Position numbers and translations under genes: made by a program. From positions 437,969-501,968 of the forward strand of contig NW_008708401.1 of the NCBI RefSeq assembly GCF_000327385.1: a stretch of 64,000 nt of DNA, given 5' to 3'. Shown here piece after piece: positions 16,546 through 23,112 of this stretch. The notes beneath the pieces are model-generated. The model searched no databases. It was given only the letters and a program-made list of their open reading frames with translations, and was not told where the DNA came from. The DNA comes from Lottia gigantea (lineage: Eukaryota). Position 1 is the stretch's first letter. Each line of letters begins with the position of its first letter.

Positions 16546-19342
16546 AGGACTGGTCTACTTCTGAGTCGCCTTCATATGGAAAGCTATGTAAAGGCGTACG
16601 TGTTCATTCTGATTTAACATATTGTAAATGTTTTAAAGGTGCCAAAATATTCCATGACAAATTTCAAAAGAAAAGTAAGGTCTACATTACCGATCTGGAA
16701 ATGATTTGAGTTGTCAACCTATATAAACTCTGGAAATGATTTGAGTTGTCAGTCCATGTAAAACTATGCAAAGATTCTTAGGATAAATGCAAAGAAAACT
16801 TAAGATAAATTTTGTCATAAATATTATATTTTTCAAAATAATATTCCACACTAAAGACGACAGACTTTCACAATTTTATCGTAAAATGTTTTGTGAAATC
16901 GAAATATCTTGGAACACAATACTGATTGTTTTCCTCAATGTGCTTTCTGGAACTAACAGGGGCTTGATATGGTTAGGCAGAGGTATATCCTGATCATTGA
17001 CAATTTATAAGGAAATAAATATCAAGAAAACAAATTCTTTAATAAAATATAAATTTCTACAAAACAAAACAACAGAGATTCAAAGAATAGATTGGTGTAT
17101 GGCAGTGGGGATAGAGAGGCTAAAAGTGGTTTATACCTCCAATCGTAACCTCACTTCATTTCCGACATATTTAGAAATATGATTTTTATAGGTTTGTCTC
17201 GAAAACAGAAATTCAATAATTGGGGGTGTGTTCTTGGTGTCTTCAGGGGAAGTCACCAGGACGGATGTGCTTGGAGTCTTGGGGATTGTTTTCCAATTTC
17301 CAGTACAATGTGAGAACATGCAATCTAATCAAGATGCAGATTAAATGTTTGTTTTGTGTGATTTTTGCTGCGGTGGGTTACTTCTATCTGCATTAAATCA
17401 CAATGCGAAACGATATATTGTTGATATTGGCAGCTGCACTCTGCATCGGTGGCGCTTCTACGATGGCGGGGCAGGTTCAATGTTGTGGACGAGAGTGAGG
17501 GTTGGCTTCGGCTTCCCAAGACGCGCATATTAGTAGAAATAAAGTTCCGAAAAAGTTAAACTGGAATGGTGACTGTCTCTTTATTAGATGGACAACTGTT
17601 ATCAAATCAATTCACAATTTTTCTGACAGTTAGTCTCTTGACACTCATTCTTATTTTCACTCCTCGCAGTGGGGCTGGATGAGAGAGGCTACTTAAAGTC
17701 TGTGAGATCACAGAAAAGCTGAACCCCTTTCAGAAGACTTAGATTCACCATCGTTCACATATGGTAAGGCATCCTAAAACGGAAGTTGGTGAGGCACACT
17801 TTGCTGGAGCTTGACCGGAAGTGTTGTTTGTTTCTGGCCGAAGTATCTTTAACTCACATCAACTATAACCATTCCGACCATGTCCATTCATCAGCACGAA
17901 ATAATCTCCACATATAAAAACAATTCACAGCGACCATCTGAACAACCCTTCCAAATAGTAATTCAGTCGGCCATTTGTGGTGCACGCTTGGCAACCATTG
18001 CTTTAACAAAGTTTGTCCGCTAATTTCAGAGAGGAAAATATAAGTTATTTGAGTAAACATGAATATCAGTGACAGTCTAATAAATAATGGCGATCTCCAT
18101 GGTGATAAAGTTTGCATGATATCTTCTTCAGTTGTTATATCCAATTCCTGTAAGAAAAAATGAAATACACAGGTAAATAACTCTTATAGTGTCATAACTA
18201 GATGAGGGCCCGTAGACTTAAATGGATTGGTGCTCTCCTGCATTTTTTTGGTAGTGGGGCCCCCCTTAAATGGTTCAACCAGTCTCTATGGTAGTTGAAG
18301 CCACTGAGCTCTATCAATCGCCGCTATTGGCCGATAAACTACGCTCGTATGTCCTCTAAATTATAGCCCATAGGCGTAGCTGCACCAACCTGCCCAGCCA
18401 GCAGGTCTTTAATACGTACGCCTATGTTGTAGCCAGTGAGGTTTTGCCAAATTTGGCTATTTTCATTGAGAAAATTCTCAACAAACTAACGATCCATATC
18501 GAAACAACACCCATAAAAAGGGACATTTTATATCTGACCCTAAACGTGCAGAAACCAGATTTGTCGGGGTACCCTTTAGCATAAGGTTTTGTTTCGTTAC
18601 CATTGAATTTTTGTCCTATTTCCCCAAGGACTATTTATATAGCCTTGCATAATAGAGGTATAAATACATTACATAAACATATTATGCATACTAACTCTAT
18701 GCTTAGCATAGATTTTGTATTATTGTACTTGTATGTGTGTGTCATCGCGATCGAATATATATTAACATACTGGGTGGCGATGGTCTGATATGTATACAAT
18801 GTACAACTACCTCAAGATGGCGTTATAAAGCCAGCAGACGATAGGCCTATTTCAACCTATTAACTAATTGCTACTTTCAGTTTCATTACTAGTCAGTCTG
18901 CCATTTTCTGTTCTTTTTGCAAGAAAATATATCCGGGATCCGAGATCTATTTAGACTAGAGTGCGGCCTAGATGGCTGGAAAGGAAACCCTCATCAGCAT
19001 CGAATTAACAGATAATGATAATAGATAACAGAGATAATGATATAGAGAAGTTTATGTCGAATCTCATATTTAAAGCGGAAATAGTATTATAAATACTGGT
19101 AAGGAATAGTTTATCTAGCTTTATTAAATCAGATGATGTACTGACGAGTTATGAGACTCGGAATTACCTCTGAATTTCTTTATACATGTTATTCATTTAA
19201 TCGAAGCAGATAATTTATGATTCGTAGTAACATTGGTGACTTCAAATTAAAGATGGTTGAGCTAAGAGTGCTAGCTTCAAAATAACGAGAGCTACATATC
19301 ACAAAATGTGAACTAGCAGTCCAATTTCCACGTAAGACATAT

Positions 19343-20090: not shown

Positions 20091-20232
20091 AACTTATTAC
20101 AGCCGAAAGCTTAGTTGAAGAAAAATTTAAGATTGCCATCCTGTTTTGATTGAACTCTGTCCATAGTTGCACAATCAACAATCTATTTTTCATTCTTTTT
20201 TTCTCTATTTTAGGTAACCTGAAGTTAGCAAA

Positions 20233-23112
20233 ATGGAAAACGACGAAGAATATAAGACATTTATGAAAAAACTTGAAAACTTTCCAAATTATTTTCAAAT
20301 GAGAGCAGAAACTACGAATTCAAATCATTGGAAAAAATTGGAAAAAAAACTTAATGATGAAAAGGAGGACTTTGAAGAAATGAGTGCAATGGATAGATTT
20401 CGAAACTTAAACTTATTTGGCTGTGTTCAGTATTATCTTGGAGATATGGAATCTGCAGAGTCCTATTTTCAGAAAGTCTTAACAGAATCAGGTTTGACGA
20501 ACATCAATGCTAGTGCGATGATGGCAAACATGTATTACATTCAGGGAAATATAATAAAGTCTAAGGAAACTCTGGAGAAATTAAATGAATTGGCAAAAGA
20601 CCCTTACAAAATAGACATTGCCAAAGGTGAATTGTGTTATGCATGGTCAAGATTGGATCCAAAACATTACAAAAAGGGAATTGATGAATTAAAAAAACTT
20701 GTTTCCAAATATTCTGATAAACCAGAATATCCCATATGGGCTTTTGGTCTTGCTTTATTCTACAGAAGATGCCTTCATCTATCTGTCAAGTCTCTTCATC
20801 CTGATATTGACGTAAACCAATCTTTCAAAAGTGCCAAGGAATTGCTTGAGAACAATATACACAGCGATGATATTGAACCCATTTATAAAGCTCGGTCTTA
20901 TATAGAGCTAGCAGACTTATTAGCTTCAAAAAATATTCACTCTGATATTGAACTTCCTTCTAGTAGTGACATATATAACTACATTGTCAAAGGTGTTGAG
21001 CTGGCCCCAGAATGTGCTTCGGTTTTGATGAAGGCAGGGAAAGTAATGAAACACATTCGCAAATATAAAATATCTGAAGAATATCTTAAAAAGGCTAATG
21101 ATCTACGACCTAACTCTTTTAACTCTCATCAATTAGCATTGATCAAGATAAGTAACATCACACATGAAAAGTATCATAAGGGTGACCATAACAGACATTA
21201 TCATTATAACCCTAATTACCATGCTGGCAGGTTTCAAACACATACTTGTCCTCAAAAAAGTTACCAGGATGTACAGAAAAGATGTGGGGAAGGTTCTCGT
21301 AAGTGGTCGAATGGTAGAAATAAGCCAGCTTGGACAACAACAAACACTAGGTCTACTCCTACATCACACCGACAAGATCACAGGATCCCAGTTGTACAAC
21401 AATTATTCAAATCATGGGAAAGCTCTCCAACAGTCCAGCTTGATCAACAAACTGATGAGAGAGGTTGTTCTACTAATCCAGATCTGGAAGAAGATTGTGC
21501 TATTCAGGAGCGTTGTGCACCTTTTGATTTTGCACAGAGTTGTGGTAGTCCTATTTTAGAAGATAAAGTAGTCCCAGACTTCAAAAAGATGTCTTTAGAT
21601 GACTTAAAAACCACAGAAAAGTTCTATTCTGACAACACACAAACAAAACATTTATCAACAACTAATGACTCTGAATGTATTTTGAAGACTTGCGAACCAA
21701 AAGAAAAAGGAGCACAACCAAATAATGCACTGGGTCCGTCAATTCAACCAAGCAAAACTTTGGATCAACAACAAAAATTTCCCTTCAAATTTTCACCACA
21801 TGCTCCAGAATTTGTACCTTTGCAAGTTGAGAAAAAGATGACACCAATAAAGCCAACTTCAATGAAAACTGTTATGAAGTCGCCAAAATTTAGATCTCTG
21901 GGCTATCACAAATCCAGAAAACTTGAACCTTGTTTGGAGCTCCTGGAGAGATCAGTTTACTACAGTAAGAATACCAATTTTTCTGCTTATTATGACTGGG
22001 GACTACTATTACTACAGATGACTCCTCCAAATTTTGAAAAAGCGTTGAGTAAATTCATCTTCATTATAAGGCATGATAAGTCAATGAATGTACGATACAA
22101 AGCTTACGAGCAGGCTGGAATTTGTTGGATGAAGATGAGTGAAAATGTAGGTGAAAAAGATCAAGAAAATCATTGTAAGAATGCCTGCGAAATGTTTAAA
22201 AGAGCAATTCGATGCTGGGCTGATTGTAAAAGGATGAAATTACATGAATATTTTGATGACACTAAGAAGAATTGTTACTCGCTGTGCTCAATGCGGGAAA
22301 TGATTCTAGGAGATACTTCGAAACGCAACACCCAACAAAGGAAAGATTTGGCTCATATTTACTATCTGATAATGGAATATGGTCCTTCTTTGGAACTTTA
22401 TGAAGAGTTGAAAAGTAACCTTCAGCAACACTCAAATGGACACGACATTGAAGTCGTAAAAGGTATCATTAACAATCATCTAGAAATGAAACAGTTTAAT
22501 GGTGTTCTTGACTTATTATCAATATTCATATCTTCTGAAGAAGGTTTTGTTTGTCATGAATTCAAATATGAAGTTCTCAAGAAGATGATGGATTTTGCTA
22601 TTGTAAACAATGATCATACTTTAGCTGCATCAGTCATAGATTTTGATAAGGAGATCAACTTCTGTTATAATGTAATGATCTTGTACAACAAGGAGGATCC
22701 ATCATCAAAAGAATTAGGGAAATGTTTAGGTGGCTGGTTGGTTGACATTGGGTTGAAAATAACTCATAATATGGATGATGTTATTTTAGGGTGGCCCAAA
22801 TTGGATGGTCAGGGAATCATAATAGGAAGCAGTAGAATGGCCGTCTGTATAATTAATGATAACAATAAATGCGACTACTTACATTTCGCAATGGAAATGA
22901 CCCTAGATGACTTTCTTACAGATGGTAGGAAAATATTTCCATTATGTATCAATAATTCTAAACTAGCTAATCCTTTTAAACATTTGAAATCATTCTGTGT
23001 ATCTAATGAATCTCGATTTGACAAACAGAAGACCGATATACTCAAAGCATTCTGTGATATTTATTTGGCTTCCAGGAATTCACCTACTGAGCCTCAGATT
23101 GAAGCAAATTAA
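20233..23112 (+). CDS. Intronless coding exon of 959 aa for an IFIT-like TPR protein (interferon-induced protein with tetratricopeptide repeats), with a long extra C-terminal extension. The 5'UTR splice acceptor is at 20212-20213.
   Basis: Uninterrupted 2.9-kb ORF in an AT-rich genome. The N-terminal roughly 340 aa aligns by eye with vertebrate IFIT1/5 landmarks: RNLNLFGCVQYYLGDMESAESYFQKV versus WGNYAWVYYHMDQLEEAQKY; DIAKGELCYAWSRL...KKGIDELKKLV...DKPEYPIWAFGLALFYRR versus DCEKGWALLKFGG..YQKAKAAFEKALEVEPDNPEF..GYAITVYRL; RPNSFNSHQLAL versus TPTSSFLHHQMGL; HYHYNPNYHAGRFQTH versus IHYHYGRFQEFH. The similarity call comes from remembered IFIT sequences, not a database search. Confidence 0.6.
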   Translation: MENDEEYKTFMKKLENFPNYFQMRAETTNSNHWKKLEKKLNDEKEDFEEMSAMDRFRNLNLFGCVQYYLGDMESAESYFQKVLTESGLTNINASAMMANMYYIQGNIIKSKETLEKLNELAKDPYKIDIAKGELCYAWSRLDPKHYKKGIDELKKLVSKYSDKPEYPIWAFGLALFYRRCLHLSVKSLHPDIDVNQSFKSAKELLENNIHSDDIEPIYKARSYIELADLLASKNIHSDIELPSSSDIYNYIVKGVELAPECASVLMKAGKVMKHIRKYKISEEYLKKANDLRPNSFNSHQLALIKISNITHEKYHKGDHNRHYHYNPNYHAGRFQTHTCPQKSYQDVQKRCGEGSRKWSNGRNKPAWTTTNTRSTPTSHRQDHRIPVVQQLFKSWESSPTVQLDQQTDERGCSTNPDLEEDCAIQERCAPFDFAQSCGSPILEDKVVPDFKKMSLDDLKTTEKFYSDNTQTKHLSTTNDSECILKTCEPKEKGAQPNNALGPSIQPSKTLDQQQKFPFKFSPHAPEFVPLQVEKKMTPIKPTSMKTVMKSPKFRSLGYHKSRKLEPCLELLERSVYYSKNTNFSAYYDWGLLLLQMTPPNFEKALSKFIFIIRHDKSMNVRYKAYEQAGICWMKMSENVGEKDQENHCKNACEMFKRAIRCWADCKRMKLHEYFDDTKKNCYSLCSMREMILGDTSKRNTQQRKDLAHIYYLIMEYGPSLELYEELKSNLQQHSNGHDIEVVKGIINNHLEMKQFNGVLDLLSIFISSEEGFVCHEFKYEVLKKMMDFAIVNNDHTLAASVIDFDKEINFCYNVMILYNKEDPSSKELGKCLGGWLVDIGLKITHNMDDVILGWPKLDGQGIIIGSSRMAVCIINDNNKCDYLHFAMEMTLDDFLTDGRKIFPLCINNSKLANPFKHLKSFCVSNESRFDKQKTDILKAFCDIYLASRNSPTEPQIEAN

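Follow-up and report, generated by a model that had tools for sequence, protein, structure and literature searches.

A single-exon limpet gene with an IFIT-like TPR clamp, a disordered loop and a predicted divergent TIR domain

Introduction

IFIT proteins are textbook interferon effectors, and the vertebrate members act by RNA sequestration. Molluscs, to our knowledge, lack interferon. The origin of IFITs has been placed in jawed vertebrates, and a BLAST survey by Liu et al. 2013 detected no counterparts in invertebrates (PMC3688568). What, then, is the long intronless gene found in a 64,000-nucleotide stretch of DNA from the limpet Lottia gigantea (hereafter the window), which the original prediction described as a double-length IFIT-like gene, perhaps fused, internally duplicated, or a decaying or domesticated retrocopy? 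We followed up this locus by homology search, structure prediction and comparison with known systems. It is well supported that the protein is one complete IFIT-like fold, split by a long disordered loop and followed by a C-terminal TIR domain.

Results

An intact gene with one coding exon

The open reading frame is the longest in the window and has the 959 codons given in the original prediction, starting with ATG and intact. With a GC content of about 35%, some 7% of random codons would be stops, which gives a probability of about 1e-31 for a run of 959 codons free of stops. Two full-length Lottia gigantea homologs share 64% and 35% identity with the protein, and against the homolog P0002 identity is 44-47% in the N and M modules and 24% in the loop between them (Table 1). 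We conclude that the 959-residue reading frame is real. A tblastn search found no further copy in the window.

The upstream splice acceptor named in the original prediction corresponds to a polypyrimidine tract and AG, a putative 3' splice site. Downstream of it, 16 nt ahead of the ATG, comes an in-frame TAA (20215-20217); if the acceptor is used, all of the coding sequence therefore falls within one exon. A non-coding exon upstream, near 18.85-19.10 kb, is then a possible arrangement, judged from these signals. A typical vertebrate IFIT gene has two exons, the first of which comprises the 5' UTR, the ATG and two further nucleotides (PMC3688568). The proposed likeness to IFIT gene structure holds only loosely: the limpet ATG lies in the large main exon and not in a tiny first exon, unlike the typical two-exon layout.

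Table 1. Features of the gene and its protein. Nucleotides are numbered from the first base of the window. Counts for channel residues refer to 37 family members, with IFIT5 columns placed by hmmalign.
Feature	Nucleotides	Strand	Residues	Remarks
Putative 3' splice site	20197..20217	+		Polypyrimidine tract plus AG 20197-20213, the AG at 20212-20213; read from sequence
Complete single-exon CDS, IFIT-like/TIR protein	20233..23112	+		959 aa + stop; ATG start; from the ORF list
N module	20233..21192	+	1-320	IFIT subdomains I-II and first pivot helix; carries R140, Y146, R178/R179, K267, K270, K273, H299, Q300
Disordered low-complexity insertion	21193..21897	+	321-555	At the short loop of IFIT5 (~311-315), between pivot and subdomain III
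PAM2-like motif	21778..21819	+	516-529	FKFSPHAPEFVPLQ; inside the disordered insertion; candidate PABP MLLE-binding site
M module	21898..22644	+	556-804	Entirely helical; TPR region with homology to IFIT subdomain III, plus ~70 helical residues into the TIR domain
C module, divergent TIR domain	22645..23082	+	805-950	Predicted fold and family profile
TIR elements bA, aA, bB			812-817, 823-838, 843-845	
TIR BB-loop			N846-G853	
TIR elements aB, bC, aC			856-865, 867-874, 881-897	
TIR elements bD, bE, aE			900-906, 921-923, 929-946	
Equivalent of IFIT5 K150			R140	R in 31/37
Equivalent of IFIT5 R186			R179	R in 31/37; pairing read from the printed alignment, R186 being unaligned by hmmalign
Equivalent of IFIT5 Y254			K267	K or R in 30/37
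Equivalent of IFIT5 K257			K270	K or R in 29/37
Equivalent of IFIT5 R260			K273	R in 29/37, K in 5/37
Equivalent of IFIT5 H287			H299	H in 33/37
Equivalent of IFIT5 Q288			Q300	H in 24/37, Q in 8/37
Equivalent of IFIT5 L291			L303	L in 32/37

The two helical regions are halves of one IFIT fold

Searched alone against Pfam and the PDB, the window protein gave weak generic TPR matches, none for its C domain and no IFIT match; its N-terminal part gave only sub-threshold generic TPR matches, and a profile of three sequences reached only IFIT3, at 0.015. Word-indexed homolog searches with the single protein or with a 37-sequence profile returned only two Lottia proteins and unrelated TPR proteins. 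An exhaustive search of representatives yielded more than 150 homologous clusters. Because the window protein alone was too weak, we worked with a family profile of 37 members. Local HMMs found the N, M and C modules together in 28 of the 159 proteins of the homolog set, the window protein included, and N and C only in nine more. The three-module architecture occurs in dozens of unnamed gastropod and bivalve proteins and in one amphioxus protein. This last protein (P0065), as a lone query, matched IFIT5 at 2e-7 and the TIR domain of oyster TIR-STING at 0.004, and it exceeded the Pfam TIR_2 cutoff (29.0 bits against 28).

Against the PDB, the family profile matched IFIT1 (3.2e-26) and IFIT5 (1.8e-25), and BBS4 came next among natural TPR proteins, at 2e-12. 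The HMMER matches were colinear (profile 6-178 with IFIT1 10-189, 249-333 with IFIT1 232-317, and 385-561 with IFIT5 315-471), and at the level of the family profile homology extends over the whole TPR array. The similarity is specifically IFIT-like, beyond that to generic TPR proteins. The link to IFIT is transitive, by way of the family profile, and the N-terminal IFIT likeness proposed earlier stands at that level and not with the single sequence.

The AlphaFold2 model has the three-subdomain clamp of IFITs (I, II, pivot and III). Foldseek aligned it across both N and M to the listed IFIT1 and RNA-bound IFIT5 chains of the PDB with TMt of 0.70-0.73 and to apo IFIT5 with 0.66; all other matches were at or below 0.49. 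The second helical region, with the segments YYDWGLLLLQ... and ACEMFKRAIRCWADCKR..., was correctly recognised in the original prediction, and the M module to which it belongs is modelled with pLDDT of about 85-95, mostly above 85. The M profile aligned to IFIT5 315-471 (hhalign probability 92.9%, P = 3.6e-7, 149 colinear columns) and gave no hhalign alignment to the N-terminal part of IFIT5, the hhalign matches to IFIT being module-specific. Since M is colinear with the last third of the IFIT5 chain, N and M are the two halves of one IFIT fold, and they are predicted to pack as a single IFIT-type TPR clamp (pTM 0.68).

These results bear on the proposal that an IFIT-like unit was duplicated within the protein, or that the gene is a retrocopy, whether decaying or domesticated. 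This proposal would account for a length about twice that of a vertebrate IFIT, for two separate helical TPR regions and for a single-exon coding sequence. The halves are dissimilar: a BLASTP comparison of the N and C halves gave E of at least 17, and on this result and the cross-module hhalign comparison we reject internal duplication. No second IFIT-like unit is found in M, which does not align significantly to IFIT residues 1-300, and relatives with a 10-residue spacer show one contiguous IFIT fold. We also reject a retrocopy or pseudogene, in view of the 959 intact codons, the module-wise conservation and the size of the family. Nor is the C-terminal half degenerate, an outcome that the original prediction had allowed for, as it holds the confidently helical M module and a TIR fold. 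We consider either version of this proposal very improbable.

The limpet protein shares with IFITs a TPR clamp fold that stays colinear along the full IFIT chain, and the non-TPR N-terminal helix motif also aligns (L..L.CHFTW.L in IFITs, L..FP..F.L in the limpet protein). It differs in that sequence identity is only about 10-17%, a disordered insertion of 235 residues follows the first pivot helix, some 70 extra helical residues and the TIR domain take the place of the IFIT C-terminal end, and the animal has, as far as we know, no interferon system.

A disordered loop of variable length interrupts the fold

The low-complexity stretch that had been reported between the helical regions is present. 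Residues 311-335 are rich in His, Asn and Tyr, and residues 321-555 as a whole are rich in Lys, Thr, Pro, Ser and Gln; the latter were modelled by AlphaFold2 without secondary structure and with pLDDT of about 30. Among 73 relatives the spacer between N and M ranges from 10 to 697 residues. It is only 10 residues long in a Patella relative.

Within the loop lies a PAM2-like motif. The PAM2 core pattern is [LS]-[NS]-P-x-A-x-E-F-x-P. As in Paip1/2, ataxin-2, eRF3 and Tob, which are known to bind the MLLE domain of PABP, the limpet sequence FSPHAPEFVP fits this core and sits in a disordered region; it differs from them in that its match to Pfam PAM2 (PF07145; E = 0.03, 14.5 bits) is below the 20-bit cutoff and that the motif is not conserved in the closest homolog, Lottia P0001. 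The linkers of P0003 (LSPDAKSFVP, Pfam E = 0.0012) and P0095 (LNPCAPEFLP) hold similar motifs. A strict PAM2 regular expression gave two matches against 0.27 expected, and a looser one showed no enrichment (three against 3.1 expected). With three convincing cases among 159 proteins, the motif is sporadic in the family, and we treat it only as a lead.

The C-terminal domain is a divergent TIR domain

A fusion had been suspected, and there is one: its partner is a C-terminal TIR domain that the original prediction had missed. The AlphaFold2 domain model (pLDDT 87.9) has a flavodoxin-like fold of bA-aA-bB-aB-bC-aC-bD-bE-aE topology, and the best 39 Foldseek PDB matches of the C domain were all TIRs. 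The family profile matched PDB TIRs at up to 2.7e-6. The C domain of the window protein had no match in Pfam, whether to TIR (PF01582), TIR_2 (PF13676) or any other family, even at E <= 10; among 32 family members, TIR_2 was found in 13 and TIR in six, mostly below the cutoff. The family has a BB-loop with the consensus GL-(K)-V-T-x-N-x-(E/D)-D-V-x-(P/A/L)-G, which in the window protein reads N846-MDDVIL-G853, with Leu in place of Pro. Taken together, we conclude from the modelled fold that the last ~150 residues are an alpha/beta TIR domain, unrecognised before.

Could this domain be an enzyme? It might generate an NADase/cADPR-type signal with E888 as the catalytic residue, switched on by a ligand of the clamp, in the manner of SARM1, TIR-STING and the bacterial and plant TIR effectors. 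Catalytic TIRs are among the structural matches (TIR-1, SARM1, AbTir, SPARTA, RUN1 and TIR-STING), and a 2026 preprint reports that a diverse set of animal TIRs in which the Glu is retained make cADPR (10.64898/2026.04.20.719644). A Glu is present in the middle of aC in the window protein and in Lottia P0001, E888 lying 13 residues past bC and 12 before bD, a spacing that, counted on predicted secondary structure, is within one residue of that in plant, bacterial and TLR TIRs. Against this, the E888 column holds Glu in only nine of 37 members and Asn in Lottia P0002, and a catalytic Glu conserved across the family was not found in these column statistics. Sequence alignments also leave the register of helix aC unfixed: in an HMM alignment to TLR2/15 the position of the canonical Glu falls between residues 883 and 884, and the hhalign alignment with the SARM1 TIR, for which an approximate sequence was used, stops at bC, before the helix. 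E888 is by its position a candidate for the catalytic Glu, and we think it improbable that the protein as such is an enzymatic effector.

The predicted clamp keeps most basic and His/Gln positions of the IFIT5 RNA channel

We compared the N module with the IFIT5 pocket residues for which mutagenesis is tabulated in PMC9677429 (Table 1). At eight channel positions (R140, Y146, R179, K267, K270, K273, H299/Q300 and L303) the IFIT5 residue is either retained or replaced conservatively, with high conservation within the family, and the equivalents of IFIT5 K150, Y156, R186, K257, R260, H287, Q288 and L291 are retained, Y156 as Y146. R178 is Arg in 30 of 37 members. Two IFIT5 residues are not kept, Y250 being replaced by S263 and R253 by M266 (E/W/M in the family column), so the ligand may differ from 5'-ppp RNA. 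The subdomain III contacts D334, F337, F339 and K415 are not conserved, in a region where the alignment is less reliable.

The loss of Y250 and R253, two of the strongest RNA contacts of IFIT5, would suit a TPR-TIR adaptor that does not sense nucleic acid, in which the solenoid is a protein scaffold and the TIR domain links it to Toll/MyD88-type signalling, in an adaptor or regulatory role. TPR solenoids often are protein-protein scaffolds, the lack of a family-wide catalytic Glu agrees with this, and 'TIR-TPR' proteins are catalogued as a class of putative TIR adaptors among mollusc immune genes (PMC4346834; PMC9334734). However, conservation in the N module is highest at basic, His or Gln channel positions (R140, R178, R179, K273 and H299), which a generic scaffold leaves unexplained, and the specificity of the similarity for IFIT among TPR proteins also speaks against it. 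We judge a pure adaptor to be rather unlikely.

The 'TIR-TPR' and orphan TIR proteins of the oyster and Aplysia surveys, with the ecTIR-DC classes, resemble the limpet protein in being cytosolic, in joining TPR-type repeats to TIR, in being expanded in molluscs and in being presumed adaptors or regulators. They differ in that they are defined by domain-database matches, whereas the TIR domains of the limpet gene and its two Lottia homologs are invisible to Pfam. Such proteins are therefore probably missing from domain-based catalogues, and these catalogues probably under-count mollusc TIR proteins of this kind. In the papers that we searched, we found no link between the TPR part and IFITs. 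The supplement of the animal-TIR preprint lists other, shorter Lottia TPR-TIR proteins, among which we did not identify the IFIT-TIR family (10.64898/2026.04.20.719644).

Discussion

The reading that we favor, at a probability of roughly 0.6, is that the protein is a cytosolic IFIT-type clamp that senses RNA 5' ends or another anionic ligand and is wired directly to a TIR output. N and M would together form the clamp, and its channel keeps the majority of the cationic, His and Gln residues with which IFIT5 and IFIT1 hold the 5' end of ssRNA; the hypervariable loop, with a PAM2-like motif in this copy, is inserted at the short IFIT5 loop. The clamp might bind a non-self RNA 5' end, carrying a 5'-triphosphate or an under-methylated cap, or some other anionic ligand. 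IFIT5 closes around RNA, and by analogy the TIR domain could be released or moved once a ligand is bound. Assembly of TIR domains with one another might then recruit TIR adaptors, for example MyD88-like proteins; alternatively, copies that keep a catalytic Glu might cleave NAD+. The protein would thus be a one-chain sensor-plus-output device, which may be inducible and may act in immunity.

Direct fusion to TIR predicts a design that is known from STING-TIR, SARM1 and bacterial and plant TIR systems and that has been described for no IFIT; our literature search found no description of an IFIT-TIR fusion. In comparison with oyster TIR-STING (6wt6/6wt7), SARM1/TIR-1 (ARM-SAM-TIR), bacterial TIR-SAVED, SPARTA and the TIR/TPR anti-phage systems, the sensor of the limpet protein is an IFIT-type TPR clamp and not STING, ARM, SAVED or Argonaute. 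The limpet protein also differs from such sensor-TIR fusions in its order, with the sensor preceding TIR, and its family does not conserve the catalytic Glu.

The presence in molluscs and amphioxus of a colinear IFIT fold, its channel conserved, suggests that the fold predates vertebrates and interferon, and makes these proteins a concrete invertebrate candidate for RNA 5'-end sensing. Mollusc antiviral immunity is relevant to shellfish aquaculture. A broader scenario, which we hold only tentatively, is that the RNA-5'-end clamp of IFITs did not arise with interferon in jawed vertebrates but is an older bilaterian fold. The invertebrate form would be a one-chain cytosolic pattern-recognition receptor in which IFIT-like sensing leads directly to NAD+ chemistry or the assembly of TIR domains, the IFITs of vertebrates would descend from it with the TIR domain lost and only RNA sequestration left, and the PAM2-like motif would tether some copies to PABP on mRNAs.

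A last observation concerns the upstream DNA. The sequence GAAANNGAAA is commoner than expected across the whole window (14 sites against 6.2 expected), and only two of its sites lie upstream of the gene. An ISRE-like core, TTTCAGTTTC, is found at 18875-18884, about 1.35 kb upstream, and we regard these ISRE-like sites, read from the sequence, as a lead.

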